Below, piece after piece: positions 1-22,126 of a stretch of DNA of 24,000 nucleotides. A model generated the notes under the pieces. The model did not search any database, was not told the DNA's origin, and worked only from the letters and a program-made list of their open reading frames with translations. How positions within the stretch are numbered: the stretch's first letter is position 1; every line of letters begins with the position of its first letter. The translations under genes and the position numbers were made by a program. This stretch comes from Maccoyibacter intestinihominis (GTDB lineage: Bacteria > Bacillota > Clostridia > Lachnospirales > Lachnospiraceae). Location: contig NZ_JBBMEX010000002.1 of the NCBI RefSeq assembly GCF_040096355.1, positions 272,483-296,482 on the forward strand. The letters are read 5' to 3'.

Positions 1-1
1 A

Positions 2-946
2 TTCGATAGCAAAATTTTATCATGGCTATACTGGCGTATAGATATGATTTTTATTTTCTATCTAATCATTGGTTTTGTATGTATATTTAATTACTTCTGG
101 AAAAAACCATGGGGATATTTGGATGAAGTTATTTCCGCAACACAGACAGTTTATGAGCAGAATGATCATCCTGTAGCATTGTCTGATCCCCTTAAAGAAT
201 TAGAGGAACAACTTAACCAGATTAAACTGTCTGTGTTGTTAAGCAAACAGGTAGCAAAAGAAGCTGAGGATAGGAAAAATGAAATTGTTATGTATCTGGC
301 CCACGATATACGCACTCCCCTAACAACAGTGATTGGATATTTAAGTTTACTCCACGAAGCACCGGATATGCCTGAAAAACAGAAAGAAAAATATGTTCAA
401 ATTGCATTAAGTAAGGCTGAACGACTTGAAAAGCTTATCAATGAATTGTTTGAAATTACAAAATATAATGCACACACTGTCTCGTTAAAGAAAGAAAAGG
501 TAGACTTACAGTGTTTGTTGGCACAGGTAGTTGATGAAATATATCCCTCTTTATCTGCAAAAGGCAATTCGGCTGCTTTTACGGTTGATGATGATTTAGT
601 TGTATATGCTGATCCGGAAAAGCTGGCAAGGGTTTTTAGTAATCTTTTGAAAAATGCAGCGGCATACAGCTATCCTAATACAGAGATTATTATAACTGCA
701 AAGCGTTGTGGTAATAGCGTTCAAATAAACTTTGAAAATCATGGACGGACTATTGAACCTGAACAAATTTCTGGCATATTTGAAAAATTCAATCGCTTGG
801 ATGAAGCCCGCCTTTCTGATACAGGCGGTGTAGGATTAGGACTGTCGATTGCAGAGGAAATTATACGATTACATGGTGGAACCATTACTGCGTTTAGCGA
901 AAATGAGATGGTGTCTTTTGTGATTATGCTTCCCATTTCTGATTAG
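2..946 (+). CDS. VanS-type sensor histidine kinase, 5' end outside the window
   Basis: The frame stays open upstream of ATG 44 to the window edge. It has an H-box (MYLAHDIRTPLTTVIGYLSLLHEAPDMP) and HATPase_c N/G boxes (LLKNAAAYS, DTGGVGLGLSIAEEI). Long stretches parallel enterococcal VanS as I recall it. Confidence 0.85.
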   Translation, partial: FDSKILSWLYWRIDMIFIFYLIIGFVCIFNYFWKKPWGYLDEVISATQTVYEQNDHPVALSDPLKELEEQLNQIKLSVLLSKQVAKEAEDRKNEIVMYLAHDIRTPLTTVIGYLSLLHEAPDMPEKQKEKYVQIALSKAERLEKLINELFEITKYNAHTVSLKKEKVDLQCLLAQVVDEIYPSLSAKGNSAAFTVDDDLVVYADPEKLARVFSNLLKNAAAYSYPNTEIIITAKRCGNSVQINFENHGRTIEPEQISGIFEKFNRLDEARLSDTGGVGLGLSIAEEIIRLHGGTITAFSENEMVSFVIMLPISD

Positions 947-962
947 GCATTTAGAAGTAAAA

Positions 963-981
963 TCTTAGGAATTTCTTAGGA
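963..981 (+). promoter_or_regulatory. Direct repeat TCTTAGGA x2 with 11-bp register, candidate OmpR/VanR-family response-regulator site
   Basis: TCTTAGGA occurs at 963-970 and 974-981, between the kinase stop and the ABC operon. A TACAAT -10-like hexamer lies at 1024-1029 with no good -35, which fits an activator-dependent promoter. Confidence 0.45.
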
Positions 982-1077
982 GATTTTGTTCCATATCTTT
1001 GAGATTAAACTGTTTTTGTTCGGTACAATAGTTACTGAACAAGGACAGTTTTTTGTTTAAGAGAAAGGAGTACACCT

Positions 1078-1965
1078 ATGGAATTAAAGATTGAACACAT
1101 CAGCAAACAGTTCAAAGATAAAACTGCAGTCGATGATGTCAGCCTTACATTAACAACTGGCGTATGGGGATTATTGGGGGCAAATGGGGCTGGAAAAACC
1201 ACTCTCATGCGAATACTTGCAGACATTATGACACCTAGTAGTGGTCGTATATCTTTGGATGGGAAAGACATTCATAAAATGGGAGCAGATTATCGCAATA
1301 TCTTTGGCTTTTTGCCACAAGATTTTGGCTATTCCCGCGATTTTACGGTCAAAGACTATCTGGAATATGTTGCTGCACTAAAGGATGTGCCGCTCAGAGA
1401 AACCACAAAGAAAATCAACTATCTGTTGGATATTCTTACCCTTTCTGATGTGAAGCGAAAAAAAATTGCACAACTATCTGGTGGTATGAAACGTCGTGTA
1501 GGAATTGCACAGGCCATGCTGAATGACCCTAAAATTCTTGTTATGGATGAGCCAACAGCAGGACTTGACCCTGGAGAAAGAGTACGGTTTAGAAACTTCA
1601 TTTCGGAATTTTCCCATGACCGTATTGTGTTGATTTCTACGCATATTGTTTCTGATATTGAATATATTGCAACTCGTAATGCGATTATGAAAGCTGGAAA
1701 GATTATTGATGTGGGAACAACAAGCGATTTGGTAAAACAGATTGAGGGGAAAGTATGGAGCTGTGCGATTCCTGCTCATAAGATGATGGACTATGAAATG
1801 CGTCTGAGGATTATCAATCAGCGAGGCGAGGACAATAATCAAATATCTATTCGTTATCTTGCAGAGCACTCCGAAGTAGAGGGTTCCATTCTTGCGGAGC
1901 CGCGTTTGGAAGATTTGTATTTATGGTTGTTTCCACAAGAAGATGTCGAAAGGGAGGAAAAATAA
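1078..1965 (+). CDS. ABC transporter ATP-binding protein (ABC-2 type)
   Basis: RBS AAAGGAG lies upstream. Walker A is GANGAGKTT, the signature is LSGGMKRRVGIA and Walker B is ILVMDEPTAGLD. Confidence 0.9.
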   Translation: MELKIEHISKQFKDKTAVDDVSLTLTTGVWGLLGANGAGKTTLMRILADIMTPSSGRISLDGKDIHKMGADYRNIFGFLPQDFGYSRDFTVKDYLEYVAALKDVPLRETTKKINYLLDILTLSDVKRKKIAQLSGGMKRRVGIAQAMLNDPKILVMDEPTAGLDPGERVRFRNFISEFSHDRIVLISTHIVSDIEYIATRNAIMKAGKIIDVGTTSDLVKQIEGKVWSCAIPAHKMMDYEMRLRIINQRGEDNNQISIRYLAEHSEVEGSILAEPRLEDLYLWLFPQEDVEREEK

Positions 1966-1966
1966 T

Positions 1967-3205
1967 ATGCGTTTATTTTGTTTAGAAGTAAAGCGTGTCC
2001 TGAAATCACGACGCACACTTATCTTAATTGCTGTGGCTCTGGTTATGTCTGTTGTTATGGCATATCTGCCGATTGCTTTTGAGTCCATAAATCGTCCAAA
2101 CCCAGATGGAACAAAAACAGAACTTGATGGTATGGAGGCAATCGAATTTAAGCGTGATTTATATTCTGCTATAAATGGCGAAGTTACTCCAGAAAAAGTG
2201 AGTGAGGCTTTGAGAATTTATCAAAGTTTGATAAACGAATATGGTCCTATGGAAAGTGACACATTTCCGCTTTCTGTCAGTATTAAACAGATTGTACCTA
2301 TTCGTCCATTGCTTAAAGCGTTGCCAGAACTATATGCTGATCCGTTAACTGGAATAGGACCTGATCTTATGGATATTGATCCAGAAGATGTTGCACAAAA
2401 TTATTATCAGAAATGTGAAACTCATCTGGCAGATGTTATGAGGAATGAGCAACGCAATCATCCGGCCGCACAACAACAAGCCTTAGAACAATATAAAAAA
2501 GTCGATATGCCATTTCAACTTTATGCAGGATATTCCAAAGACGCGTTTGACTATGTTGAGCTTTATATTATGATTTTGGCAATTTTATGTGTTTCCATTA
2601 TCACGCCTATTTTTTCTGGTGAATATCAATCAGGCGCGGATAGTATTTTGCGTTGTGCAAAGCATGGTCGTACCAGATTAGCTATTACAAAGATATTGGC
2701 TTCCAGTATGATTGTGATGGTTGTGTATACTATGTGTATTACACTGCACTTAGCAATTTCAGATATCACATTTGGAACAAATTGTTTACAATCTTCTGTT
2801 CAAATGTTGTTTTCTATTATTAACTTGCCAAACTGGGACTTAGCACAGATGCAGATTGTTATTTCGTTAGTAGGGTTGATATCTGTTTTAGCTTGTGTTT
2901 ACTGTACTTTTTTTTTATCAGCAAAATGCAAAGATACATTGACGGTATTGTTGATTGCTATTGGCATAGTCCTTATTCCGACTTTTGCTTACACAGCATT
3001 AGGGGTAAATTGGATTTCAGCTATTTTTCCATCTGCGGGACTTGGTATGCAAAATAATTTTCTGTATCAACTTATCAATTTTAATTACCTACATATTGGG
3101 GGAATGAGTTTTTGGACACCGTATACTATATTAATTTCCGCATTGATTGAGATTCCTGTTTTCTTATTTCTTACAGTTCGAACTTATTGTAGGCACCAGA
3201 TGTAA
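1967..3205 (+). CDS. ABC-2 family permease with a large extracytoplasmic loop after TM1
   Basis: ATG 1967 lies 1 nt after the ATPase stop (the ORF-track start at 1892 overlaps the ATPase gene). The protein has an N-terminal TM helix, a ~190-aa hydrophilic loop, then multiple hydrophobic helices. Confidence 0.75.
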   Translation: MRLFCLEVKRVLKSRRTLILIAVALVMSVVMAYLPIAFESINRPNPDGTKTELDGMEAIEFKRDLYSAINGEVTPEKVSEALRIYQSLINEYGPMESDTFPLSVSIKQIVPIRPLLKALPELYADPLTGIGPDLMDIDPEDVAQNYYQKCETHLADVMRNEQRNHPAAQQQALEQYKKVDMPFQLYAGYSKDAFDYVELYIMILAILCVSIITPIFSGEYQSGADSILRCAKHGRTRLAITKILASSMIVMVVYTMCITLHLAISDITFGTNCLQSSVQMLFSIINLPNWDLAQMQIVISLVGLISVLACVYCTFFLSAKCKDTLTVLLIAIGIVLIPTFAYTALGVNWISAIFPSAGLGMQNNFLYQLINFNYLHIGGMSFWTPYTILISALIEIPVFLFLTVRTYCRHQM

Positions 3206-3248
3206 ATATAAGGAAAAAGGGCTATATTCATAAAGTATAGAGGATTTA

Positions 3249-3308
3249 TTACATCAAGTATCGAAATTGTTACATCAAAATATATTTTGGGGGATTTATT
3301 GATATAAT
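3249..3308 (+). promoter_or_regulatory. Candidate regulated promoter of the rSAM operon
   Basis: TTACATCAA occurs at 3249-3257 and 3270-3278 (21-bp register). GGATTTATT occurs at 3242-3250 and 3292-3300. An extended -10, TGaTATAAT, lies at 3300-3308 with no good -35. Confidence 0.45.
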
Positions 3309-3348
3309 CGGTTCATAATAAAAAATCCAAATGAAAGGAGTGTTTAGA

Positions 3349-4902
3349 GTGAAAGAGCAGAAAAAAATATCTTTAGAATCGCTGGTATCTGAAATCGAAA
3401 AAAATGGAAGAATTGGGCGCTTGGGTAAAGTTTTTAAGACAGAAAAAAATTATTATTTTTATGATACAGGAACTGGAAAAGTTGCCAAATTAAATTCGAA
3501 CGTTTACATTGTACTGAAAAGTTTATTGGAGGGAATGCCAGTCGAAGATATTAAAAATCTTCAATTAAGTAAAAGTGAGTTTGAGGATGCAATTTCAGAA
3601 ATTAAGTCGGCAATGGAAAATGAACATATTTTACAAGCTCCACCATTAAAAACGCTGACAGGTGATGCAGTAACAGAGTTAGATGATATTCTTGAAAATA
3701 AGGTTGAGAATGTTACTCTTGAAGTTACTGAAAAATGTAATTTACGTTGCAAATATTGTATTTATCATCCTTCTCATCCAGAATACAGGGCGTTCGGACA
3801 TGAAAACATGAAATGGGATGTTGCAAAAAAAGCTATTGATTTTTTAAAAGAGCATTCCCAAAATGCAGAAAATAGGCACATTGGATTTTATGGTGGAGAA
3901 CCTTTACTAAATTTTGAACTTATTGAAAGAGCAGTTGAATATGCTAAAAAATTATTTGGCGAGGATATGTCCTTTGCAATCACTACAAATGCAACATTGG
4001 TAAATGATAAGATCGCAGAGTATTTTGCCAAAAATAATTTCAATATTATTATTAGCTTGGATGGTCCTCAGGAAATGCACGATGCAAATCGGCTTATGGT
4101 TAATGGGACAGGTAGCTTTGAAAAAACAGTTATGGGAGCAAAAAAACTATTTGAAGCATTCCATAAGGAAGGAAAGAGTTCTAAGATTGGATTTAATATG
4201 GTTGTATCGGGACCAGGTTATCTTGAACAGTATACAAAAATTCAGGAGTTTATCGAAAAAAGTGAATGGATTCCCAAAGACGTTATGATTTTGACTGCAA
4301 CGGTAGATCATGGACCGTCAGAGAGTGATTACTTTTTACCGCAAGGAAAAGAAGATAGATGGTTTATGGAAGAGTTTTATGAACCTTTAATGAAATGGGA
4401 AGAAGTGTATAAATCAAATCCAGATAATACAGAAAAAACTTTGTTTACGGATGGTTATATGGATAAGGGAATGATGATTATACACAAACGCTTGTTGACA
4501 GAAACACCTATTCAACAGTATGGAATGAATGGATGCTGCGTGCCGGGACAAAGAAGGATTTATGTCACTACAAAAGGTGAATTTTTACATTGTGAAAAAG
4601 TAGGAAATATACCTTGTTTAGGCAATGTGAATGAGGGATTTGATAAAGAAAAAATTAAGAAACTTTATGTTGAAGACTTTATAGAAGAAGCAAAAGAGTA
4701 TTGTAAAGAATGTTGGGCAGTTAATTTATGTACATTATGTTATGTTAATTGCTACGATGCTAATGGATTACATCTTTCATATCGACATAATTCATGTCGA
4801 AACGAAAGAAAGTATTTGGAAGACAATTTAAGACGATATCATGCATTAATGGAGGCAAATCCAAGCGAATTGGAACAATATAATGAAATGGAAATTCATT
4901 AA
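3349..4902 (+). CDS. Radical SAM / SPASM-domain peptide maturase
   Basis: The protein carries CNLRCKYC (CX3CX2C), FYGGEPLL, and C-terminal auxiliary-cluster cysteines (CCVPG...KGEFLHC, then CKECWAVNLCTLCYVNC). A ~130-aa N-terminal extension precedes the rSAM core. RBS AAAGGAG at 3334-3340 favours GTG 3349 over ATG 3331. Confidence 0.88.
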   Translation: MKEQKKISLESLVSEIEKNGRIGRLGKVFKTEKNYYFYDTGTGKVAKLNSNVYIVLKSLLEGMPVEDIKNLQLSKSEFEDAISEIKSAMENEHILQAPPLKTLTGDAVTELDDILENKVENVTLEVTEKCNLRCKYCIYHPSHPEYRAFGHENMKWDVAKKAIDFLKEHSQNAENRHIGFYGGEPLLNFELIERAVEYAKKLFGEDMSFAITTNATLVNDKIAEYFAKNNFNIIISLDGPQEMHDANRLMVNGTGSFEKTVMGAKKLFEAFHKEGKSSKIGFNMVVSGPGYLEQYTKIQEFIEKSEWIPKDVMILTATVDHGPSESDYFLPQGKEDRWFMEEFYEPLMKWEEVYKSNPDNTEKTLFTDGYMDKGMMIIHKRLLTETPIQQYGMNGCCVPGQRRIYVTTKGEFLHCEKVGNIPCLGNVNEGFDKEKIKKLYVEDFIEEAKEYCKECWAVNLCTLCYVNCYDANGLHLSYRHNSCRNERKYLEDNLRRYHALMEANPSELEQYNEMEIH

Positions 4903-4965
4903 CAAAGGTAAATACGTTTATATTTACATAGATGTATTTAAATTACAAAGAAAGGAGGAATCGTT

Positions 4966-5166
4966 ATGAAGTTTGTAAATCCAATTGGAAGAACACCTGG
5001 ATCAGGAGTGCAGCCGAGAGCATGCATGTGTACTGATGGATATGCAGGTTACAGAGGCAATGATGATGGTTGTGTTCATTGTGGCTGTGGCTGTGGTGGC
5101 GAAGGAGAGTATCGTACAGGTAACAGAGTAAATGCTGTTGCTACATTCCGTTCTAGTACTCTCTAA
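4966..5166 (+). CDS. Cys-rich RiPP precursor peptide candidate (66 aa, 6 Cys)
   Basis: A strong RBS AAAGGAGGA at 4951-4959 lies 6 nt before the ATG. The peptide is MKFVNPIGRTPGSGVQPRA-CMCTDGYAGYRGNDDGCVHCGCGCGG-EGEYRTGNRVNAVATFRSSTL. It sits between the rSAM maturase and the ABC exporter. Confidence 0.75.
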   Translation: MKFVNPIGRTPGSGVQPRACMCTDGYAGYRGNDDGCVHCGCGCGGEGEYRTGNRVNAVATFRSSTL

Positions 5167-5180
5167 GAGGTAGTAAAAAC

Positions 5181-5211
5181 GAAGGCGTAGTACTATATGT
5201 GCTACGCCTTC
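5181..5211 (+). terminator. Stem-loop between precursor and exporter genes (possible partial terminator or mRNA stabiliser)
   Basis: GAAGGCGTAG (5181-5190) pairs perfectly with CTACGCCTTC (5202-5211). No U-tract follows it. Confidence 0.4.
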
Positions 5212-5230
5212 ACTATATAGGAGAAAAATC

Positions 5231-7006
5231 ATGCTAAAAAAAATAAAAAGGAATATTTTTTTGATTTATTATACGATAAGATTAATTTGTAAAATATGTA
5301 AAGCAAAATTTATTCTGGCATTTATTTTGTCTATAATAAATGGAATTCTTCCTGTTTCGTCCTTATTGGTAATGCAACAGTTGTTAAATGAAATACAAAA
5401 CAAGACACAATCATATCAATATGTGGTGTATCTTTTGATTTTATATTTCGGGCTAATTATCTCGGAATCGCTTTTACAGAATTTAGCAAGCTATAATTTA
5501 AACAATTTAAACAATCATTTAGTTTATGGAATAAATTACATTCTTATGAAAAAATGTGGGGATTTATCATTGGAAATGTTAGAGAGAACAGAAACATATG
5601 ATATGATAAATCGTTTAGAACAAGAAATTGGAAATAAACCATATCAGACCATGCAAGGGGTATTAGGCTTAGCATCTAATTTAGTTTCGTTATTTTCAGC
5701 CGCAATGATACTACTTTCATGGAATCCAATTCTTGTGATTATAATGATTGCTGTGTCAATATTAATGTTTATAGGACAAATTTATGTTGGTAATAAAGAA
5801 TTTCTAATGAGATATGAGCGCAGTGGAAAAGAAAGAAAAGCGTGGTATTATACATATTTACTTACACATGATACAGCATTTAAAGAGGTAAAAGCATATG
5901 GATTAAAAAAATATTTGCTGGATAAATATTGTAGCTTAGTCAAAACTTTCATAAAACAAGCCAATGAAATTGAAAAAACCAGAGCTGTTTTAAATATGAT
6001 TATTTCGTTTATACAAGATATAGTTTGTATAATTATAATGATTATTGCAATATATTTGGCTTACGTAGGGAAAAAAATGATAGGAACCACTATGTCATAT
6101 TTAAATGCTGTGTCCATGATGCAAAATGCTACAAATAGCATTGCCTCTAATGTTTATTCTATTTATAACGCAAATTTATATATACAATTACTAAAAGATT
6201 TTTTAGAAATAAAAGAAGGGGAGAATGCGTTAGGTGGTACAAAAGTAGATAATATAAAGACAATTGAACTAAGAAACGTATCTTTCGATTATCCTCAATG
6301 TAAAATGGCACTATCTACCATTAATTTAAAAATTAAATCAAACGAACAGATTGCAATTGTAGGAAAAAATGGATCTGGGAAAAGCACTTTATTTAAAATT
6401 TTATGTGGGTTATATAAACCTACTAGTGGGAAGCTATTTGTTAATAATCTTGATTTGGAGAATATTGATGTAAAGAGTTACAGGAATTGTATATCTGTTC
6501 TTTTTCAAGATTTTTTAAAGTATGAAGGTACATTGGAAGAGAACGTTTATATAGGAGATATTAGTACAGAAGTCGATGAAAATAAAATTAAAAATTCATT
6601 GTGCAAAGCAAACGTTGATTTTTTAAAAACCGAAAGAGGATACGAACTAAAAAGAGGATTAGGAAATTGGTTTGATGAAGGAGGTCAATTATCAGGTGGT
6701 CAATGGCAGAAAATAGCGTTAGCAAGAACCTATTATAAAAATGCAGATTTATATTTGTTGGATGAGCCTAGTTCCGCATTAGATGTAACAGCAGAAACCA
6801 AAATTTTTAAGAGTTTTTTTGAGGTGAGTAAAAATAAGATAGCAATATATATAACCCATAGAGTAAAAATTGCACAGGATGCTAATAAAATAATTGTATT
6901 AGATGGGGGTAAAATAGTAGGTATAGGAACACATGCAGAGTTATTGAAAAATTGTAGTGTATATCAAGATTTATATAATCAAGAGAACCTAAAAAATAAA
7001 GGGTAA
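5231..7006 (+). CDS. ABC exporter, fused TMD-NBD, without an N-terminal C39 peptidase domain
   Basis: RBS AGGAG lies at 5219-5223. The hydrophobic N-terminal half starts at residue ~20. Walker A is GKNGSGKST, the signature is LSGGQWQKIALAR, Walker B is LYLLDEPSSALD, and the H-loop is ITHR. Confidence 0.88.
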   Translation: MLKKIKRNIFLIYYTIRLICKICKAKFILAFILSIINGILPVSSLLVMQQLLNEIQNKTQSYQYVVYLLILYFGLIISESLLQNLASYNLNNLNNHLVYGINYILMKKCGDLSLEMLERTETYDMINRLEQEIGNKPYQTMQGVLGLASNLVSLFSAAMILLSWNPILVIIMIAVSILMFIGQIYVGNKEFLMRYERSGKERKAWYYTYLLTHDTAFKEVKAYGLKKYLLDKYCSLVKTFIKQANEIEKTRAVLNMIISFIQDIVCIIIMIIAIYLAYVGKKMIGTTMSYLNAVSMMQNATNSIASNVYSIYNANLYIQLLKDFLEIKEGENALGGTKVDNIKTIELRNVSFDYPQCKMALSTINLKIKSNEQIAIVGKNGSGKSTLFKILCGLYKPTSGKLFVNNLDLENIDVKSYRNCISVLFQDFLKYEGTLEENVYIGDISTEVDENKIKNSLCKANVDFLKTERGYELKRGLGNWFDEGGQLSGGQWQKIALARTYYKNADLYLLDEPSSALDVTAETKIFKSFFEVSKNKIAIYITHRVKIAQDANKIIVLDGGKIVGIGTHAELLKNCSVYQDLYNQENLKNKG

Positions 7007-7499: not shown

Positions 7500-7829
7500 A
7501 TGAAGTATGTTTTTCCAGAATATAAAGAGAATGTAGTTTTGGGCGATGGAAAACTGCAGTTAAATCCAATGTCCTATCAGGTTATTTACGAAGGAAAGGA
7601 AATAGATTTAACGCCCAGGGAATTTGAAGTTCTGTATCTTTTAGCCCAAAGGCCAAATTGGGTTATTCCAAAGAAGAATATCTATTGTTCGGTCTGGGAG
7701 AGTAATTATTATGATGATCAGATTCCGTACAAAACAGTGGAACACGTAGTATGGAAGATACGAAAAAAGATGGGGCATGATATTATAGAAACATTGATCA
7801 ATGTAGGGTATAGACTAAAAAAGATGTAA
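7500..7829 (+). CDS. Stand-alone OmpR/PhoB-type winged-helix DNA-binding protein (no receiver domain)
   Basis: RBS AAGAGGAGG precedes ATG 7500. The Trans_reg_C-like sequence runs LTPREFEVLYLLAQRPNWVIPKKNIY..VW....VEHVVWKIRKKMG...IETLINVGYRL. The 28 codons upstream in the ORF track do not look like a receiver domain. Confidence 0.75.
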   Translation: MKYVFPEYKENVVLGDGKLQLNPMSYQVIYEGKEIDLTPREFEVLYLLAQRPNWVIPKKNIYCSVWESNYYDDQIPYKTVEHVVWKIRKKMGHDIIETLINVGYRLKKM

Positions 7830-8990: not shown

Positions 8991-9623
8991 ATGGGAAAAC
9001 AACAGGATAGAGAGAAAATTGTACAGGAGATTAAAGTAGCTGCTGATCTGTATAGGAAGCATTTAGTAGGTAAAAGATTTCTATATGTATTTGAAGGCAG
9101 ATATATTGAGGTGCTTTATAAAGCTGCCAATTTTAGGCACTTGACAGGTGTGGCCACGAACCTTTCAGCAAAAAAGTTTTATAGTTATGCAGCAAAAAAA
9201 ATGCTTCAGGCTTCGCAGATATTTTTTACACCGCAGCACCCTTTTTCATTGTGTAAGCGTAAGATTAAGCATATCGGACAGATTGCAATGCTGGCTGGCT
9301 CAGAAGGATTTATGCTGGAAGAGATTGTCACAGACACGAGAACTTATAAGTTTGGCACAACAGATCTTAATTTTACTCTATGCTTAAATAAAGAGTATGA
9401 TGATAAGGGGCAGCAAAAGGGCGATTGCTTTGTAGTAGAATCGCTGCGAGATGAAGATTGCTTTTCTAAAAGTAGAACAGCATATACAGTAACTCATATT
9501 TTTTCAGCGCCGAATGATGCGAAAAAATATACAAATTTACTGTTTTTAGATGAAAATGCAACGGTAGACGGTCTTCCAGATGAAATTAAAAACATGCTGG
9601 ATCAAACTTTACTACATAAATAA
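8991..9623 (+). CDS. Hypothetical protein (210 aa)
   Basis: A long ORF with normal composition and a weak RBS (GGGAAAAG). It lies downstream of the leader and terminator. I cannot place it in a family with confidence. Confidence 0.6.
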   Translation: MGKQQDREKIVQEIKVAADLYRKHLVGKRFLYVFEGRYIEVLYKAANFRHLTGVATNLSAKKFYSYAAKKMLQASQIFFTPQHPFSLCKRKIKHIGQIAMLAGSEGFMLEEIVTDTRTYKFGTTDLNFTLCLNKEYDDKGQQKGDCFVVESLRDEDCFSKSRTAYTVTHIFSAPNDAKKYTNLLFLDENATVDGLPDEIKNMLDQTLLHK

Positions 9624-10176: not shown

Positions 10177-10533
10177 ATGCAGAATGAACTTTATATTGTA
10201 GCAGATGCCATAAAAGCCTTGCGGGAATCCAGGGGACTGACTCAGGAGCAGCTTGCAGAGAAAGCAGATATTTCCGTATCACATCTGGCGAAGATTGAAA
10301 CACATGCCAGACTTATGGGAATGAAAACTTATATCCGGCTGTTGGAAGCTATGGATATTCCCATAAAAGAACACTTTATACACATGGGTACAGCGAAAAA
10401 AGATATGATGTTGAAGGAAAAAATCTGGTATCTGGTACAGGATTGTGATGAAAGAGAAACTAACCTTTTGATCTATTCCATAGAGGGAATTAAGAAAGGG
10501 CTAAAGAAATATCAGCAAGACAGCAGGAAGTGA
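10177..10533 (+). CDS. XRE-family helix-turn-helix transcriptional regulator
   Basis: RBS GAGGAG precedes the start, and TATAAT lies at 10141-10146. The HTH_3-like segment is LRESRGLTQEQLAEKADISVSHLAKIE. Confidence 0.8.
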   Translation: MQNELYIVADAIKALRESRGLTQEQLAEKADISVSHLAKIETHARLMGMKTYIRLLEAMDIPIKEHFIHMGTAKKDMMLKEKIWYLVQDCDERETNLLIYSIEGIKKGLKKYQQDSRK

Positions 10534-10559
10534 GAATACAGATAGGGAGGAAAAGGGAA

Positions 10560-11015
10560 ATGTTATCAAGAGAAAAGGTGGAAGCAGTATTATTTAAAAT
10601 GGGAATGCCTGCCAATGTAAAAGGATTTGGCTATATTGTAGACAGTGTTTTGCTTCTGGAAGAAGACAGCAAGATTAAAACGACATATCTGTATTTTAAG
10701 GTGGCCCAGCAACATGGCACGACAGGGCAGCGGGTAGAACGGGCAATCCGCCATGCGTTTGATATTGTCCGAAGCTGCAGAGGTGATTATGATGTGGTGA
10801 ACCATTATATCGGTTTTATCAACTGTGCCAATTCCCCTTCCTTATCCATGCTCACAATGAAGATACGGGAGGAAGCACTGGAAGTACCGGAACCAAAACC
10901 GGAAAAGAAAGAAGAGAACGTGATTACGGGAATTACCGAAGACCGGCTTTTGGAGTTGATGCGGCAGGCATGTACGGAATTTTGGGCAGATATGATTATC
11001 CGGTTAAAAAAATAA
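10560..11015 (+). CDS. Stand-alone Spo0A C-terminal (DNA-binding) domain-like protein, no receiver
   Basis: RBS GGGAGG precedes ATG 10560. GMPANVKGFGYIVDSV and GTTGQRVERAIRHAFDIV parallel B. subtilis Spo0A GVPAHIKGYLYLREAI and NTTASRVERAIRHAIEVA. Confidence 0.8.
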   Translation: MLSREKVEAVLFKMGMPANVKGFGYIVDSVLLLEEDSKIKTTYLYFKVAQQHGTTGQRVERAIRHAFDIVRSCRGDYDVVNHYIGFINCANSPSLSMLTMKIREEALEVPEPKPEKKEENVITGITEDRLLELMRQACTEFWADMIIRLKK

Positions 11016-11432: not shown

Positions 11433-11611
11433 CTGCAGCGGGAAAGGGTGCTGCAGGGTGTCAGGCGGCCAGCCGGGCCGGTCCTACATGCTCCCGTTCA
11501 CACCGGGGTGAGAAAATAAAAAACATGCTGGCAGGGAAAGCCCTGCCAGTATGGTGTGTAAAATGGGTTCATTTTAGGGCTATGGGGAAACGCCGGTTTC
11601 TTTATAGCCCT
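11433..11611 (+). other. Cluster of three strong GC-rich hairpins in a noncoding stretch
   Basis: CTGCAGC/GCTGCAG pair at 11433-11456. CTGGCAGGG-AAAG-CCCTGCCAG forms at 11528-11549. AGGGCTAT...ATAGCCCT, with an inner GAAAC/GTTTC, forms at 11576-11611. Confidence 0.5.
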
Positions 11612-11650
11612 GGAATGAAAACAGGAGCCAAAGAAAGAGGAGGCAGAGCA

Positions 11651-12196
11651 ATGAATAGAGAGATGTTACAAAAACTGTTTTCAGAAGATAAAGAGATCTT
11701 TCAGGGAGGAATGTTATTCCCTGCATGGATCTGCAAAGGAAAAAAAGAGATAGAAAATAGGAACAGTCCCCAGCGGGCGGCAGTGTATCTGGATATTCCC
11801 ATTCCATGTGCCGGGCTTTTGTATTATGAAAAAGAAAAAAGCCTGCATTACTGTGAACAGCAGACATACCATGTGGTTACTTTACTGGAAGGTGTAGGGT
11901 GTGGTAATTCCATAGAAAAAGAAAACTGGCAGAGGCTGGCAGTGCTTGCAGGAAAAGGCATGATTGATGTGATTGTGGTATCCGGGCTTAGCAGGTTATC
12001 CTATTGTCCGGAAGAAATTTTACAGACTATGGAACTGCTCCAGTCTTTTCAGGTGCAGATAGACTGTATCGGTTATGGGATTTTAGATTATGCCAGACTG
12101 AAACAGTATTTAATGCACACCTGGGAGAAACAGGAACAATTTGAGCAGGACTTAGATGCGTATCTGTGCAGTTGCTGTACCAGGGAAGGGATATAA
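11651..12196 (+). CDS. Resolvase N-terminal-domain-like protein lacking the catalytic serine
   Basis: A strong RBS AAAGAGGAGG precedes ATG 11651. AAVYLDIPIP occupies the position of the Y-x-R-x-S nucleophile motif. IDVIVVSGLSRLS matches the conserved ..DLSRL.R motif. There is no recombinase, zinc-ribbon or HTH extension. Confidence 0.6.
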   Translation: MNREMLQKLFSEDKEIFQGGMLFPAWICKGKKEIENRNSPQRAAVYLDIPIPCAGLLYYEKEKSLHYCEQQTYHVVTLLEGVGCGNSIEKENWQRLAVLAGKGMIDVIVVSGLSRLSYCPEEILQTMELLQSFQVQIDCIGYGILDYARLKQYLMHTWEKQEQFEQDLDAYLCSCCTREGI

Positions 12197-12450
12197 TGCT
12201 CTCGCGGGAAGAACTGCTGAAGATGCGGGAAATGACGTTTGAGGACATTGACCCGAAAGAGATACAAGATGTAGAGAAACTGAAGATTGATGTAAAAAAG
12301 AGCAAACCGGAGAAGGTCCGGGAAATCCTGGAGTCCGGAAAGAACCCTTATTTTCTGAAATATAAGGGGATCACCATAAAGATTGGGTTTGCTTCTACCA
12401 ACCGTACCATAGAGGAAGCCATGCAAAGCCTTGTGCAGATGAAATGGTAA
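12196..12450 (+). CDS. Hypothetical protein (84 aa), translationally coupled to the preceding gene
   Basis: The TAATG stop/start overlap is at 12194-12198. The product begins MLSREELLKMREMTFEDIDPKEIQD. Confidence 0.55.
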   Translation: MLSREELLKMREMTFEDIDPKEIQDVEKLKIDVKKSKPEKVREILESGKNPYFLKYKGITIKIGFASTNRTIEEAMQSLVQMKW

Positions 12451-12600
12451 AGCCACGACAGGGATAGGGAAGAAAGCGGATTGTTGGCAGATTACAGGGT
12501 GGACAAACCTTCTGGACTATGGTAGGATGATGGCAAGGACCCAGTAGCCTCTATCATTTAGGGAATCGGCTGACGAATCTAAATGATAGGAGCGAATACA

Positions 12601-14268
12601 ATGAAAAATCAAATACTTAAAAAAATCTATCGTGCGGTTGTTTACCTGCGCCTTTCTGACGAAGATGGTGATAACAGGGAAAGCGACAGCATATCAAACC
12701 AGAGGATACTAATCCATAGCTTTTTAAAGAGCCACCCTGAAATTCAGGTGGTAAAAGAATGTGTAGATGATGGATATACCGGCACAAACTTTAACCGCCC
12801 CGGTTTTCAGGAAATGCTGCGTATGCTGGAAGAGGGGGAAGCAGACTGTATTATTGTCAAAGACCTTTCCCGTTATGGAAGGGACTTTTCCGGTGTTTTA
12901 CAGTATGTGGAACGTATCCTGCCGAAAATGGGTGTGCGCCTGATCCTTGTCAATGACAATTATGACAGCCTCACGCCAAATCGTGATTTCCTTACCCTGA
13001 GATTTAAAAGTTTAATCAATGACCTTTACCCTGCGGATACTTCCAAAAGTGTGCGTTCCCATTTGTATGTCAAAATGACAGCCGGGCAGTGTGTAGCGCC
13101 TTTTGCTTTTTATGGTTATCTGAAATCCGAAGAGGATAAACATAAGCTGGTCATGGACGAAGTGGCAGCTTCTGTTGTACGGGATATTTACCACATGAAA
13201 ATGCAGGGCTACAGCCTGACGGATATATCCGAAGAATTAAACCGGCGTGGGATCTTGACGCCTCTTCGGTATAAGCAGGTATATTTAAAACAGAAATTAA
13301 AGACAGGGTTCCGTCTGACGGAAAAACCGGTCTGGATGCCAACTATGGTGCGTCGTATCCTTCTTGATGAACGCTACACCGGAGTGCTGATACAGGGAAA
13401 AACCACAACGCCAAACCATAAAGTAAAGGTTGTGATCCACAAAGAGGAAGCTGAGTGGATACGGTATGAAAATGCTTTTGAGCCGGTTATCAATAGACAC
13501 CAATATGAAGTGGTGGGCAACCTGATGAAAATGGATACCATGAGAGGTGCAAAGGGGCTAGCGCTTCTTTCAGGCCTGGTAAAATGTGGGGACTGTAAAG
13601 AAAGCATGGTACTGAAAAGCCCAGATAAAGTCCACCACTATTATGTATGTTCGACTTCCCTTTATGAAAAGCAGTGCAGTTCCCATAGTATCAGTGAGAA
13701 AAAACTGGTAGGAGCTGTGACAGAGGCAATCCTGCATTATATTTCTGTTCTGGTGGAGCTGAAAGAGATACTGGCGTATGTAAAAACTGCCTCAATCCCA
13801 AGACAGCGGCTTTTGGAAGAAGACAAAAAACTGGAGATGCTGGAAAAGGAGAGCCAGAGGATTTTAAACATTAAAGTAAAACTGTATGACAGTTTTGCAG
13901 AAGAAATCCTGGACCGGACAGAATTTGAAACCTTCAAAGCAAAGTATGACCAGTCTTTAGAGGAAATCCGGCAGGCAATGGAGTGCCAGCAAAGGGAAAT
14001 CCGAAACTTGCAGGAAACCCTTGAAAAACAGCAGGAGTGGCTGGAATATTTTCTGGAATACCGGGACCGGACGGAAGTGGACCGCTTAATGCTGGTAAAC
14101 CTGGTCAAACGGATTGAGGTATATGAGCAGAAGCGCATTATCATTCATTTTTGGTTTGAAGATGAATTTGAAAAGGTATTGGGACTGCTGGAAACGGTAA
14201 ATAGAGCAAAGCCGGATCAGCATGTGGAAGCCTTCCTGAAAGGAAAGGGGGCGGAAGCAAGTGCCTAA
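12601..14268 (+). CDS. Large serine recombinase 1
   Basis: RBS TAGGAG precedes ATG 12601. The protein has YLRLSDEDG...SISNQR, IIVKDLSRYGRDF, a zinc-ribbon CGDC...C..C segment and a C-terminal coiled-coil-like region. Confidence 0.9.
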   Translation: MKNQILKKIYRAVVYLRLSDEDGDNRESDSISNQRILIHSFLKSHPEIQVVKECVDDGYTGTNFNRPGFQEMLRMLEEGEADCIIVKDLSRYGRDFSGVLQYVERILPKMGVRLILVNDNYDSLTPNRDFLTLRFKSLINDLYPADTSKSVRSHLYVKMTAGQCVAPFAFYGYLKSEEDKHKLVMDEVAASVVRDIYHMKMQGYSLTDISEELNRRGILTPLRYKQVYLKQKLKTGFRLTEKPVWMPTMVRRILLDERYTGVLIQGKTTTPNHKVKVVIHKEEAEWIRYENAFEPVINRHQYEVVGNLMKMDTMRGAKGLALLSGLVKCGDCKESMVLKSPDKVHHYYVCSTSLYEKQCSSHSISEKKLVGAVTEAILHYISVLVELKEILAYVKTASIPRQRLLEEDKKLEMLEKESQRILNIKVKLYDSFAEEILDRTEFETFKAKYDQSLEEIRQAMECQQREIRNLQETLEKQQEWLEYFLEYRDRTEVDRLMLVNLVKRIEVYEQKRIIIHFWFEDEFEKVLGLLETVNRAKPDQHVEAFLKGKGAEASA

Positions 14269-15952
14269 GGTAAGCAAAAGAGGACAGAAAAGACAAAGCA
14301 GCAAGCCGGAAATGAAGTATCTGAGAACCTATATTTATGTAAGGCTTTCCGAAAAGGACGGAGGGCATGGCAGAAGGGATTCCATTTATATCCAAAAACA
14401 GATCTGTGAAGACTACGCAAAGAAACACCCGGAAATGCTGGTGGTAAAAGTCTATGCGGATAATGGTGTGACAGGTACAACGTTCCAAAGGAACGCATTT
14501 GAAGAGTTGATGGAAGATGTGGCAAATAAAAAGGTTGACTGCATCATTGTAAAGGATTTTGCCCGGTTTGGAAGGGACGCCTTAGATGCTGTAGATTTGA
14601 TTGATGTAATTTTCCCAACTTTAAATATCCGGTTTGTTTCCGTTATGGACGAATATGACAGTGCGAACCCGGCTTGTGTAGAAGACCGGACCACCAATAT
14701 TTTGAAGCACTTTATGAATGATTATTATGCCAGGGAAGTTTCAGAGAAACTGGTACAGGCACACCGGCTGTCCAGGGAGCGGGGAGAGTTCTGGGGTTCC
14801 AGACCTCCTTATGGATACCAAAGGGCAGAGGAAAACAGCAAGAAGCTGGTGCCGGAACCAGAGGAGGCAGAAATAATCCTGCAGATTTTTTACTGGTATG
14901 TGTTTGAAGAAATGTCAAGCTATGATATAGCAAGGGAACTGAATGGCAGAAAGGTATTAGGACCGGAGGACAGCTATCAGAAAAGGAAACAGGGAAAGGA
15001 GCCGGAAAAAAGGCGGTTATGGAGATCAGACGGTATCAGGAAGATTTTACAGAACCCCGTTTACATTGGTGCTGCTGTTTATGGGAAAACAAAACAGATG
15101 CTTGCACAGAATATTCCTCTTCAGATGATACCAAAAGAGCAGTGGGAAGTGTGTGAAAATGCCTGGGAAGCAGTTGTGGAACGGGCGATTTATGAAAAAG
15201 CACAGGAAATTGCAAAGGAACGCTGGAAAGATACGTTAGATAACTGGGCTGCAAACCCAAAAGAAAAACAGGGGGCAGATGGTTCTTTTAAGGGAAGAAT
15301 TTTCTGTGGACATTGCGGAAAACGCCTTGGAAGGTGCAGGAGCGGAGGCAATGAGAAACATAAATATATGGTTTATAAATGCCCTTCTTTTTCCCTTACA
15401 GATCATACGGAATGTTTCCGCACGGTGAATGAAATCTACATCAATCAGGCAGTCAAGGCAGCACTCCGCTACCAGATCCAGCTTGCTGTGGAAAGTAAGA
15501 AGACCTATGGTGCAGAGTTTTATCAAAAGCTGGAGCAGGAGGTAGCAGAAAAAATAAAAAATGCCAGACAGAAGTATGAGAAATATGGAAGAAAACTGGA
15601 AATCTTGTTTGAGCATTATGCTACCGGACTGTTGGACTGCAAGGAATATCAGGAGATTAAATCAATCTATCAGGAAGAACAGCAAGCAGCCAAGCAGAAT
15701 ATGAAGCAGGTACAGCTTCGTGGACAGAACCTGTTAGATCAGGTGAAGGCAAGAATGGACTGGACAGAGGAACTTCTAAAGTACCAAAGATTCCAGAAGA
15801 TAGAGAAAGGGATTGCTGACCGCTTTATTGAAAAGATTACGGTATATTCCAAAGACTATGTGGAAATCGTGTTCTGGTTTGGGGATTTATTTGAAAAGGA
15901 GCTGGAAAAAGAACTGGTCAATATGGAAGGAGGTCTTCCGTATGCAGTATGA
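14261..15952 (+). CDS. Large serine recombinase 2
   Basis: GTG 14261 overlaps the recombinase 1 stop by 8 nt; ATG 14312 is an alternative start. The protein has YVRLSEKDG, IIVKDFARFGRD and CGHCGKRL...YKC. Confidence 0.88.
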   Translation: MPKVSKRGQKRQSSKPEMKYLRTYIYVRLSEKDGGHGRRDSIYIQKQICEDYAKKHPEMLVVKVYADNGVTGTTFQRNAFEELMEDVANKKVDCIIVKDFARFGRDALDAVDLIDVIFPTLNIRFVSVMDEYDSANPACVEDRTTNILKHFMNDYYAREVSEKLVQAHRLSRERGEFWGSRPPYGYQRAEENSKKLVPEPEEAEIILQIFYWYVFEEMSSYDIARELNGRKVLGPEDSYQKRKQGKEPEKRRLWRSDGIRKILQNPVYIGAAVYGKTKQMLAQNIPLQMIPKEQWEVCENAWEAVVERAIYEKAQEIAKERWKDTLDNWAANPKEKQGADGSFKGRIFCGHCGKRLGRCRSGGNEKHKYMVYKCPSFSLTDHTECFRTVNEIYINQAVKAALRYQIQLAVESKKTYGAEFYQKLEQEVAEKIKNARQKYEKYGRKLEILFEHYATGLLDCKEYQEIKSIYQEEQQAAKQNMKQVQLRGQNLLDQVKARMDWTEELLKYQRFQKIEKGIADRFIEKITVYSKDYVEIVFWFGDLFEKELEKELVNMEGGLPYAV

Positions 15953-17516
15953 TTTTATTTTTGCTTATCTGCGTCTTTCCAGAGATGATAAAGAAAAAAT
16001 GGAGGAAAGCAACAGCATTAAAAATCAAAGGCTTTTGATCCAGCATTTTGTAGAAAAACAGCCGGAATTTGCAGGGGCAAAGGTTTTCTTCTTTGTAGAT
16101 GATGGTTACAGCGGTACAACCTTTGACCGCCCGGAATTTAAGCGCATGATGGGGCTGATTACCAGGAGAAAACGGATCTGTATCATTGTCAAAGATTTGA
16201 GCCGCCTGGGAAGGGATACCATAGAAACACAAAACTATATCGAAAAAATATTTCCGTTCCTTGGGGTGCGTTTCATTTCAATCAATGATTTTTATGACAG
16301 CAGCCAGAAACCTTCCGAAAGAAAGGATACGGAGATTAAATTTAAGAACCTAATCAATGGGATTTATCCCCAGATTTGTTCCGACAATATCAAAAAAGTT
16401 ATGAGGAAACAGGCTGAAATGGGACAATATCATGGTTCAATCCCAACATACGGATATTGCTTCCATGACGGTGTTCATACAAAACTTCATCTGGATACGG
16501 AGGCAGCTTCCGTTGTAAGGGGGATTTTCGACCAAAGGTTGGAAGGAAAGACCTATGCAGACATTGCCAGGGACCTGAATAAAAAAGAAGTTGAAACACC
16601 TACCGTATATCTTCAAAGGAAAGGCTGGGCGCCGGAAGCAAAGAAATCTGTGAAATTCTGGGACGGAAATTTAGTAAAGCTGATTTTGTTTAATCCGGTT
16701 TATGCAGGACTGACGGTAAGAGGGAAAACAGAAACCAGGGTTCCGTCAAAAAGAGAGTACCGATATATTTCAAGAGAGGATTGGATTTGCGTAAAAGGAG
16801 GACACGAAGCGATTGTAACGGAGCAGGAGCTTCAGAAGGTCCAGGACATGGTACAGAAGGACAGAAAATATCATGGGTCTACACCGTCTTCTGAGAATAT
16901 TTTTGCAGGCCTGATCCGCTGCGGGCATTGTGGTCGGAAAATGCGGATACGGACAGAATACAAAGAAAAGCCGATTTATTGTAAAAGTGTTACGACAGCC
17001 CCCAATGCTTCCTGTTATCCAAAGAAATATAAGCAGAAAGAGTTGGAAGAACTGGTGCTAATTATGATAAGACAGCAGGCAGCCCTTGCAGAGGATACCA
17101 TAAAGCAGTTAAAGAAAGCCAATCAGACTTTGAATATTCCGAAACTCCGGTATCGGAAAAAGCAATATGAAAAGAAGCTGGCACTTTGCAAACAGGAGAA
17201 AATGGAACTATATGAACAATATGTAGAAGAACAGATTTCTTTGAAGGATTACCTGGCACGAAAACAAACCTATATGGAGAAAATAGCAGCTTATCAGCAA
17301 AAGATACAGGAGATAGAAGCAAAAATTTTAAAGGGGGAGGAGGAAAAACAAAAGGAGAAATCAGAGGGACTGCAACTTTTTGTAAAATATAAGGGATTGG
17401 AAGAGCTGTCTTATGAAGTTCTGCATGAGCTGATTGAAGTCATAAATTTTTATGATCCGGAACATATTGAAATTGTATGGAAATACAGGGACGAATTTCT
17501 GGAAGCAGTAGAATAA
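15942..17516 (+). CDS. Large serine recombinase 3
   Basis: RBS GGAAGGAGG precedes ATG 15942, which overlaps the recombinase 2 stop by 11 nt. The protein has YLRLSRDD...SIKNQR, IIVKDLSRLGRD and CGHCGRKM...YCKS. Confidence 0.9.
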   Translation: MQYDFIFAYLRLSRDDKEKMEESNSIKNQRLLIQHFVEKQPEFAGAKVFFFVDDGYSGTTFDRPEFKRMMGLITRRKRICIIVKDLSRLGRDTIETQNYIEKIFPFLGVRFISINDFYDSSQKPSERKDTEIKFKNLINGIYPQICSDNIKKVMRKQAEMGQYHGSIPTYGYCFHDGVHTKLHLDTEAASVVRGIFDQRLEGKTYADIARDLNKKEVETPTVYLQRKGWAPEAKKSVKFWDGNLVKLILFNPVYAGLTVRGKTETRVPSKREYRYISREDWICVKGGHEAIVTEQELQKVQDMVQKDRKYHGSTPSSENIFAGLIRCGHCGRKMRIRTEYKEKPIYCKSVTTAPNASCYPKKYKQKELEELVLIMIRQQAALAEDTIKQLKKANQTLNIPKLRYRKKQYEKKLALCKQEKMELYEQYVEEQISLKDYLARKQTYMEKIAAYQQKIQEIEAKILKGEEEKQKEKSEGLQLFVKYKGLEELSYEVLHELIEVINFYDPEHIEIVWKYRDEFLEAVE

Positions 17517-21556: not shown

Positions 21557-22126
21557 GGAAAATCCACCTTATTGAATATTATAGGAGGAATTGAAACAGC
21601 CGATGAGGGCAGCATCATCATTGATGGCGAGACCGTAGAGAACATGAATGACAAGCAGCTTTCCCTGTACAGAAGAAAGCACTTAGGATATGTGTTCCAG
21701 TCCTACAATCTGATTCCGAATCTGACGGTAAAAGAAAATATTGAAACGGGTGCGTACTTAAGCAATGATCCACTGCCGTTGGATGATATGTTAAAAACAC
21801 TCGGACTCTGGGAGCATAAGGACAAAATCCCAAACCAGCTTTCCGGAGGACAGCAGCAGAGAACAGCCATCGGAAGGGCGATCATCAAAAATCCGGACAT
21901 ACTGCTCTGTGATGAGCCAACCGGAGCTTTGGACTATAAGACCTCGAAAGAGATTTTAAAACTCATTGAGACCGTAAATCAGAAATTTGGAAATACCGTC
22001 ATCTTAGTCACACATAATGATGCGATCCGCCATATGGCAGATCAGGTCATAAAGCTGCATGACGGACAGATCCGCCACAATGATAAGAATGAGCAGAAGA
22101 TTCCTGCCGTAGATTTAGACTGGTAA
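21557..22126 (+). pseudogene. 5'-truncated MacB/FtsE-type ABC ATPase
   Basis: In frame, the sequence reads TAG (21554-21556) then GKSTLLNIIGG, so it starts in the middle of Walker A (GxxGxGKST). The Q-loop FQSYNL, signature LSGGQQQR, Walker B ILLCDEPTGALD and H-loop VTHN are intact. There is no RBS or plausible start. Confidence 0.75.

Follow-up and report, generated by a model that had tools for sequence, protein, structure and literature searches.

Ruminococcin C (RumC), the closest characterised system to the locus described here, is a type II double-hairpin sactipeptide antibiotic of Ruminococcus (Mediterraneibacter) gnavus E1, in which five precursors (RumC1-5) are served by two synthases (RumMC1/2). 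RumMC is a proven C-alpha thioether synthase (PMC8188230), and leader removal by trypsin is required for the activity of the peptide (PMC6779426, PMC6760926). A cluster homologous to ours was described in 2011 by Murphy et al. on the Anaerococcus prevotii plasmid pAPRE01, with an enzyme of 518 amino acids (aa) that carries the motif CNLRCKYC at Cys132 (PMC3132745). Here we analyse a 24,000-nucleotide stretch of the Maccoyibacter intestinihominis genome (contig NZ_JBBMEX010000002.1, forward-strand positions 272,483 to 296,482; hereafter the window), in which a radical S-adenosylmethionine (SAM)/SPASM enzyme gene is followed by the gene for a cysteine-rich precursor peptide and by an ABC exporter gene. 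With a probability of roughly 65%, judged from sequence comparison, we read this locus as a bacteriocin-type cluster for a RiPP (a peptide made on the ribosome and modified after its translation) of the Apre_1838 (TIGR04067/PF27802) putative sactipeptide family, working by the mechanism proposed below. It is not a new class, having been assigned long ago by bioinformatics alone.

An earlier, sequence-only reading of the same DNA had proposed a radical SAM/SPASM, Cys-rich peptide and ABC exporter cluster of unassigned RiPP class. The cluster itself is borne out by profile models, motifs and synteny in all ten relatives examined, and the enzyme with its CNLRCKYC, GGEPLL and SPASM cysteine set, the six-Cys open reading frame (ORF) with its strong ribosome-binding site (RBS), the stem-loop and the exporter all lie at the coordinates given for them. 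The lack of a class, on the other hand, was mistaken: the peptide passes TIGR04067/PF27802, a RefSeq name exists, the cluster type was published in 2011 (PMC3132745), and a single NCBIfam search resolves the assignment. The peptide here is 66-67% identical to Apre_1838 and the two enzymes are 57% identical, with the same gene order of kinase, ABC ATPase, permease, radical SAM enzyme (517/518 aa), peptide and ABC exporter. In pAPRE01 an additional permease separates peptide from exporter and VanZ lies downstream; the present locus has VanZ and a regulator upstream, is chromosomal beside an agr-like system, and has for the enzyme operon a promoter of its own with a LytTR-type box.

The precursor scores 105 bits against NCBIfam TIGR04067, the "Apre_1838 family putative sactipeptide bacteriocin" (cut-off 45), with residues 1-57 aligned to profile positions 1-58 of 59; at E <= 0.01 its only other match in NCBIfam is a weak one to NF035954, and both are putative sactipeptide families. 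All of its homologues bear Pfam PF27802 (Bacteriocin_CLOSPO-01332) in precomputed annotation, while an older Pfam copy that predates this family gave no match. RefSeq holds the identical sequence under the Apre_1838 family name as a MULTISPECIES Clostridia entry, and the exact sequence is indexed in 21,173 assembly blocks. An exhaustive profile search of 1.84 billion representatives returned 86 clusters at 50% identity, so that the family is small, and one of its gut variants is extremely common.

Within the peptide, cysteines stand at positions 20, 22, 36, 39, 41 and 43 (CxC...CxxCxCxC), and a leader of approximately residues 1-18 (MKFVNPIGR...QPR) and a core of approximately residues 19-66 with all six cysteines can be predicted. 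When 14 sequences from five named genera and metagenomes are aligned, M1, N5, P6, G8, the six cysteines and N53 are invariant and R/K9, G14, P17, R/K30 and G31 nearly so, and D34 is nearly invariant among close relatives. Among 75 diverse full-length family representatives, each of at least 60 aa, the cysteine pattern is found in 70; of these 70, 53 have the leader motif NPxG[RK], 66 have Ala immediately before the first Cys, and 42 have Arg or Lys in front of that Ala. The junction here, Q-P-R18|A19-C20, is a trypsin-type site.

Several published peptides were checked as characterised members of the family and set aside, as the precursor families of SacP23, estercticin A, taglucticin A and gnavucin D all differ; a paper on "sactipeptide-like" clusters of gut isolates has SCIFF as its subject rather than the TIGR04067 family. 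The literature on TIGR04067, PF27802, CLOSPO_01332 and the motifs AGYRGN, HCGCGC and YRTGNR yielded no characterisation, its three matches being unrelated. Some public gene calls are chimeric, joining AgrB to the radical SAM enzyme (598 aa; the P0037, P0091, P0092, P0227 group) or the radical SAM enzyme to the ABC ATPase (534 and 540 aa), and a further chimera of 74 aa among proteins P0037/P0091/P0092/P0227 fuses the N-terminus of the enzyme to the C-terminus of the peptide; this suggests deletion variants or misassemblies of the RiPP locus in some samples.

In the numbering of its 517-aa form, the enzyme carries CNLRCKYC (CX3CX2C) at residues 130-137 and GGEPLL at 182, and near its C-terminus CKECWAVNLCTLC sits within a cysteine block at residues 396-483, where the SPASM cysteines fit CX13GX4CX36CX2CX5CX2CX18C as an exact regular-expression match. 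Together with CX3CX2C this is the published RumMC motif (PMC6779426), so the CX2CX5CX2C spacing that had been taken as a departure from the textbook pattern equals that of RumMC. Of the two possible start codons, the GTG has the better placed RBS (AAAGGAG), and public gene callers use both. RumMC NF035951 is also the best curated model for the enzyme (474.8 bits, E 3e-142, profile positions 9-509 of 510), followed by CcpM TIGR04068 (317.3 bits, nearly full length). Far smaller scores are reached with PapB NF047865 (168 bits, cut-off 340) and the SCIFF maturase TIGR03974 (159, cut-off 425), so that of the two families to which the sequence-only reading thought the cluster might be related, SCIFF does not apply and the CcpM cut-off of 500 bits is not passed. 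All 39 homologues of the enzyme (40-67% identity) match the RumMC model at E ~1e-142 to 1e-151, well short of its cut-off; by these scores the clade, for which NCBIfam contains no dedicated model, is a sister of RumMC and not an equivalog. The identical protein is named in databases from Agathobacter rectalis and Lachnospiraceae.

An AlphaFold (AF2) model built from the 39-sequence alignment (pLDDT 91.5) has a beta3-alpha3 unit at about residues 26-92, N-terminal to the radical SAM barrel. Foldseek comparison with PDB structures places CteB chains at the top over the whole chain (E 2e-21, ~494 aligned columns), followed by structures of anaerobic sulfatase-maturating enzymes (anSMEs) and then ChlB. 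The domain positions coincide with those of RumMC2, namely a RiPP recognition element (RRE) at 16-94, radical SAM at 120-297 and SPASM at 394-481 (PMC8188230), and the enzyme has the same RRE, radical SAM and SPASM architecture. The earlier suggestion that the N-terminal extension could bind a leader thus gains support at the level of the predicted fold, which is that of an RRE-like leader-binding domain. On its motifs and model scores, the enzyme is a probable thioether (sactionine) synthase.

Ten neighbourhoods of related enzymes were examined: A. prevotii (57% identity), Sarcina (41%), Paraclostridium (42%), C. botulinum (51%), Paenibacillus (42%), E. faecalis (43%) and four metagenome contigs (58-65%). 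In every one of them a PF27802/Apre_1838 peptide gene of 64-70 aa lies directly 3' of the enzyme gene, and a pairing kept so consistently shows that these features are not there by chance; absence of the small ORF from syntenic loci, which had been named as a finding that would count against the proposal, was not seen. All relatives with downstream sequence have an ABC exporter after the peptide, separated from it by extra ABC genes in pAPRE01 and Sarcina. Upstream, the kinase, ABC ATPase and ABC-2 permease of the window are syntenic in five loci (L010, L011 and L013 by tblastn; L017 and L018 from gene tables), kinase homologues lie in L010, L013 and L015, and VanZ recurs in five cluster contexts. 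The cluster therefore reaches left to the window edge and beyond, taking in kinase, ABC ATPase/permease, regulator and VanZ, and the earlier description of it as compact or minimal was too narrow. Some relatives also contain leader protease genes (Peptidase_S8 in C. botulinum; Peptidase_M16, of the RumPc family, in Paenibacillus), from which it follows that the precursor family uses leader proteases. In three genera the relatives' clusters are plasmid-borne.

The exporter is named NisT/SpaT-type by JGI. Its alignments to peptidase-containing bacteriocin and NHLP exporters begin at about profile position 155-161, past the peptidase domain; the protein opens with a transmembrane segment, has no C39 match in Pfam and lacks the C39 part of TIGR01193-type exporters. 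Among the window ORFs scanned there was no protease, LanB/C/M, YcaO or sulfatase, in agreement with the sequence-only reading. Between the precursor and exporter genes, the stem-loop folds at -24.9 kcal/mol (z = -5.65), which none of 200 shuffled sequences matched, and a strong hairpin of differing sequence occupies the equivalent position in all six other loci folded. It is a probable conserved operon feature, predicted to act as an attenuator or mRNA-stabilising element that raises precursor mRNA over exporter mRNA.

Paired 9-bp repeats with a 12-13-bp spacer are the architecture bound by the LytTR regulators AgrA, ComE and PlnC. Such a pair, perfect in its repeats, precedes the enzyme gene and ends 24 nt upstream of an extended -10 element; its first base, 3249, coincides with the position at which the sequence-only reading let the locus start. 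The window is nearly identical to a contig (L004; 99.99% over 15 kb) that extends further upstream, and in this contig two more copies of the same 9-N12-9 box (L004:1332 and L004:1894) precede a 137-aa ORF and a 49-aa AgrD-like ORF that is followed by AgrB; these boxes lie 62-71 nt from the start codons and their spacers are partly common. Four 9-N12-9 pairs were observed in 20 kb where 0.08 are expected, and none of 300 random sequences had at least three, while single-copy TTACATCAA matches elsewhere in the window exceed chance to a modest degree only (18 versus 11.9 expected; 2 of 100 shuffles reach 18). As in LytTR-regulated promoters of the agr/com/pln type, two 9-bp repeats stand 12 bp apart upstream of a promoter with an AgrC-like kinase and a LytTR regulator nearby; unlike in those promoters, the repeat TTACATCAA departs from the published LytTR consensus, and the regulator genes lie outside the window. 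Because the box is common to the cluster promoter and the agr-like genes and a LytTR regulator is close by, quorum-sensing control is predicted, and the enzyme-peptide-exporter unit is probably a target of the neighbouring agr-like system. In E. faecalis, Paenibacillus and the locus L018, too, the cluster has Agr or LytTR genes next to it; other relatives wire it to OmpR-type systems instead.

The agr-like locus itself occupies L004:1-3186, upstream of the window, and comprises a LytTR response regulator, an AgrC-like kinase and AgrB together with a 137-aa receiver-like ORF that has no Pfam match and a 49-aa AgrD-like peptide (..SACCYIYHQPKMP..). The fourth box, at 12266-12295 on the minus strand and close to recombinase genes, is weaker (TTACATCAA-N12-CTACATCTT, 3 mismatches) and may reflect chance or an antisense promoter.

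Like RumC, the present locus comes from human-gut Lachnospiraceae, and the two have in common the cysteine spacing and RRE/radical SAM/SPASM layout of the enzyme, a basic residue at the leader/core junction, and the company of a two-component system, an ABC exporter and immunity genes. In a gapless alignment with the RumC1 sequence (checked against PDB 6T33), the four RumC1 cysteines (CxC-16-CxxxC) fall on C20, C22, C39 and C43, leaving C36 and C41 as extras. The differences are that RumC has four cysteines against six here and five precursors with two synthases against one of each, that its precursor family is another, and that an M16 peptidase of the RumPc type, although present in the Paenibacillus relative, was not found here. 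A second comparison is offered by thurincin H, a type I sactipeptide, whose closely spaced CxxCxxCxxC donor block, confirmed in its sequence, and C-terminal tail resemble the CxxCxCxC and ~23-residue tail of the present peptide. Thurincin H has four nested sactionine bridges, and its leader ends in VQPR (compare GVQPR here). There is no detectable sequence homology between the two precursors, and ThnB belongs to a different sactisynthase lineage (PMC10288494); the resemblance to thurincin H is no more than a lead for topology. Systems of the CcpM/CLI_3235 family, such as SacP23 of Paenibacillus polymyxa (PMC10731318), likewise place a Cys-rich peptide beside a radical SAM/SPASM enzyme and an ABC transporter, but their precursor family is different, and the TIGR04066 and TIGR04069 proteins and the subtilase of CcpM clusters are absent here.

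We propose that the RRE domain of the enzyme would bind the precursor through the conserved leader M-x-F-[IV]-N-P-x-G-R, and that the three-cluster enzyme would then abstract hydrogen atoms and form thioethers between C20, C22, C36, C39, C41 and C43 and acceptor carbons further downstream, most probably at C-alpha (sactionine). The product would be a double hairpin of the RumC kind with as many as six bridges; the hypothesis can also be put with four thioethers plus a disulfide. Calculated masses are 6875.061 Da (monoisotopic) for the unmodified precursor, 6862.967 Da with six thioethers, 6866.998 Da with four, 6864.983 Da with four and a disulfide, and 4940.936 Da for a six-bridged 48-residue core released at Arg18-Ala19. 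The modified peptide would be secreted with its leader still attached by the C39-less exporter. As no protease is encoded at the locus, an outside protease would be needed, and host proteolysis, which the sequence-only reading had considered, has a precedent in RumC; by the same logic as in the trypsin activation of RumC, the cut would fall at the trypsin-type bond Arg18-Ala19. The ABC ATPase/ABC-2 permease, in concert with the VanS-like kinase, the OmpR-type regulator and VanZ, would protect the producer, while the agr-like system would drive transcription of enzyme, peptide and exporter from the LytTR-type box and the hairpin after the peptide gene would keep precursor mRNA in excess. A more specific version, in which six thioethers form a RumC-like two-bridge N-terminal hairpin (C20, C22) and a four-donor C-terminal hairpin (C36, C39, C41, C43), under agr control, with leader-on export and activation by host trypsin at Arg18-Ala19, is put forward tentatively, and we would sooner expect one of its parts to fail than all of them to hold.

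Several observations weigh against the assignment to a sactipeptide antibiotic with this mechanism. The enzyme misses the equivalog cut-off of its best model by a wide interval (474.8 versus 720 bits for RumMC) and that of the second best as well (317.3 versus 500 bits for CcpM). The core resembles RumC1 at a marginal level (E 0.057), and a profile of the precursor family run against PDB sequences found neither RumC1 nor any other sactipeptide, its sole match being a spurious one to a pilin (E 0.28). The basic residue before the core is missing in 28 of the 70 representatives with the cysteine pattern, and a mildly acidic pI of 5.5 is calculated for the predicted core. A de novo search for 9-N12/13-9 repeats before the cluster gave nothing convincing in the loci of E. 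faecalis and Paenibacillus or in L018, so that the LytTR wiring is not generalisable. Insertions are found in four of the eight near-identical loci displayed, a share that overstates their frequency because the listing favours distinct neighbourhoods. Since the literature searched holds no structure or activity for any TIGR04067/PF27802 member, we infer the type, number and topology of the cross-links. Finally, by published report the sequences of the RumC, thuricin CD and huazacin synthases lie nearer to ranthisynthases than to AlbA/ThnB (PMC10288494), which makes overall similarity a weak guide to C-alpha versus C-beta/gamma chemistry.

This last point is the starting place for a different product, a ranthipeptide in which the Cys sulfurs would be joined to beta or gamma carbons, for example of the stretch N32-D33-D34, rich in Asp and Asn, or of N53. 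The best solved structural match of the enzyme, CteB, is a SCIFF maturase, the PapB and SCIFF maturase models match it at E 1e-46 to 1e-49, and the candidate acceptors D34 and N53 are conserved as described above, the latter in 14 of 14 aligned sequences. Yet the RumMC model lies ~300 bits above any ranthisynthase model and has the exact SPASM cysteine spacing in common with the enzyme, and the peptide matches putative sactipeptide families only, so we hold this chemistry to be unlikely, if the foremost of the alternatives. Almost on a par with it, and a little less probable, is a cross-linked peptide that is not an antibiotic but a signal, a metal-binding or a physiological peptide, as suspected for other widespread Cys-rich radical SAM peptides. 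The pattern CxxCxCxC resembles metal-binding motifs, the core is not cationic, no activity is on record for the family, and the locus is tied to quorum-sensing genes and often disrupted without apparent loss of the strain. Against such a role stands the company the cluster keeps, since it travels with producer-immunity genes (ABC ATPase/ABC-2 permease, a VanS-like two-component system and VanZ); a dedicated exporter and plasmid carriage in three genera form the usual bacteriocin pattern, and RumC is an antibiotic.

The cluster might also be a horizontally acquired one that is unexpressed or without product in this lineage. Its GC content is 29-33% across 3-8 kb compared with 40-45% in the flanks further right in the window, an orphan regulator fragment lies downstream, and chimeric or truncated products occur. 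Insertion sites in the near-identical loci, which are otherwise 98.6-99.98% identical, fall at 3209-3220 (L005), at 3337 in the RBS (L003), and at 3440-3452 (L008) and 4247-4250 (L007) inside the enzyme gene, and the inserted elements include IS66, IS110/IS4-like, an HTH_38 transposase and an IS91/integrase cassette; four independent events that hit or uncouple the synthase gene indicate a dispensable locus subject to recurrent inactivation. Moreover, a scan of GTDB representative genomes with the single enzyme sequence found no close relative, only a distant radical SAM protein of Victivallales (38% over 144 residues). Silence or decay is nevertheless improbable here, as the genes in the window are all unbroken, with good RBSs and no catalytic cysteine missing, the promoter box is perfectly repeated, and the exact peptide is kept in more than 21,000 assembly blocks. 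The low GC content, the plasmid-borne relatives, the occurrence of identical proteins in several species and the result of the GTDB scan suggest instead an accessory cluster that moves horizontally. As for an anSME or other non-RiPP SPASM enzyme beside an incidental small ORF, the UniRef label of the enzyme ("Anaerobic sulfatase-maturating enzyme homolog YdeM") and the anSME structures second in the fold comparison would speak for it, but the enzyme reaches a mere 92, 69.6 and 67 bits with the anSME models TIGR03942, NF010321 and NF010308 (cut-offs 349, 441 and 484), carries an N-terminal RRE-like domain that anSMEs are without, is accompanied by no sulfatase among the ORFs scanned and has a peptide gene adjacent in all ten relatives. 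This reading is effectively refuted, and the grouping with sulfatase maturases that the sequence-only reading had named as a test of its proposal does not occur.

With the class assigned, the value of the locus lies in the chemistry and ecology of the product, the present precursor variant being carried by Lachnospiraceae of the Agathobacter rectalis type. If it does encode an active RumC-like antibiotic, the product would be one of the commonest antibiotic peptides in the human gut that still await characterisation, from a very abundant commensal, and could affect colonisation resistance and strain competition there. It would also extend sactipeptide topologies from four bridges (RumC, thurincin H) to possibly six and provide a second example of a gut RiPP dependent on proteolysis by the host. 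When peptide production pays off is a question on which the predicted agr-type control and the repeated interruption of the synthase gene by insertion sequences both bear. Coordinates of the cluster features are collected in Table 1.

Table 1. Features of the RiPP cluster in the window (position 1 is the first nucleotide of the 24,000; TMD, transmembrane domain; NBD, nucleotide-binding domain)
Feature	Position	Strand	Details
Radical SAM/SPASM peptide maturase gene	3349-4902	+	GTG start, 517 aa; alternative ATG start 3331-4902, 523 aa
Precursor RBS AAGGAGG	4952-4958	+	RBS of the precursor gene
Precursor peptide gene	4966-5166	+	66 aa; TIGR04067, PF27802, RefSeq name, family alignments
Stem-loop, no T-run	5170-5216	+	13-bp inner stem 5181-5211; between precursor and exporter genes
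ABC exporter gene	5231-7006	+	591 aa, fused TMD-NBD; ABC_membrane + ABC_tran
Perfect 9-bp direct repeat, 12-bp spacer, TTACATCAA-N12-TTACATCAA	3249-3278	+	LytTR-type (AgrA-like) box architecture
Extended -10 TGaTATAAT, promoter-like	3300-3308	+	Read from the sequence; consensus match only
VanS-like sensor histidine kinase, 3' part	1-946	+	HisKA + HATPase_c; full gene 354 aa, starts upstream of the window
Direct repeat TCTTAGGA-N3-TCTTAGGA, 11-bp period	963-981	+	Upstream of ABC immunity genes
Long hairpin followed by T-run, terminator-like	1007-1051	+	19 pairs; between kinase and ABC ATPase genes
ABC transporter ATPase gene	1078-1965	+	295 aa; ABC_tran
ABC-2-type permease gene	1967-3205	+	412 aa; weak ABC2_membrane_2 match; partner of the ATPase
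Trans_reg_C winged-helix ORF, no receiver domain	7500-7829	+	PF00486, 56.8 bits

The left part of the window holds the genes proposed to serve immunity and its regulation. The kinase scores 354 bits against NF033091, under the cut-off of 400, and in the near-identical loci L001-L008 the full kinase gene, an OmpR-type response regulator and VanZ are found just upstream of the window. The direct repeat that follows it fits a candidate box for an OmpR-family response regulator; TCCTTA/TCTTAGGA-like elements also precede the ABC ATPase (in L013 and L018) and the response regulator gene (in L001). Hairpins comparable to the terminator-like one between the kinase and ATPase genes occupy the same place in L013 and L018. 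The ATPase resembles the DrrA, GldA and lantibiotic-protection ATPase models, in each case under the cut-off, and is, from its sequence and setting, a probable subunit of a self-protection (immunity) transporter; in the three loci compared by tblastn its homologues are 51-69% identical, and those of the permease 26-47%. Downstream of the exporter, the winged-helix ORF (109 aa) is kept in all of the near-identical loci L001-L008. It could be what is left of a second two-component system, or else a regulator that acts on its own, and its membership of the cluster is uncertain.

Further to the right, the window contains genes that suggest a mobile element. Three tandem large serine recombinase genes at 12583-17516 (561, 563 and 567 aa; Resolvase, Recombinase and Zn_ribbon_recom domains), preceded by a resolvase-like fragment at 11525-12196, suggest the edge of a mobile element ~5 kb to the right of the RiPP cluster. 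In the interval between, at 8991-9623 and 10177-11015, a protein with a PBECR4 (phage Barnase/EndoU/colicin-like) nuclease domain, an HTH_3 regulator and a protein with a Spo0A_C domain are encoded, genes that resemble mobile-element cargo. After the recombinases, an AbiH abortive-infection gene (18893-19798; 195 bits) lies in a patch of 30-32% GC, flanked by ORFs of no assigned family. A 184-aa ORF at 21572-22126, whose sole match is to the C-terminal part of ABC_tran (profile positions 29-136), could derive from an ABC ATPase gene that was interrupted by the mobile element.

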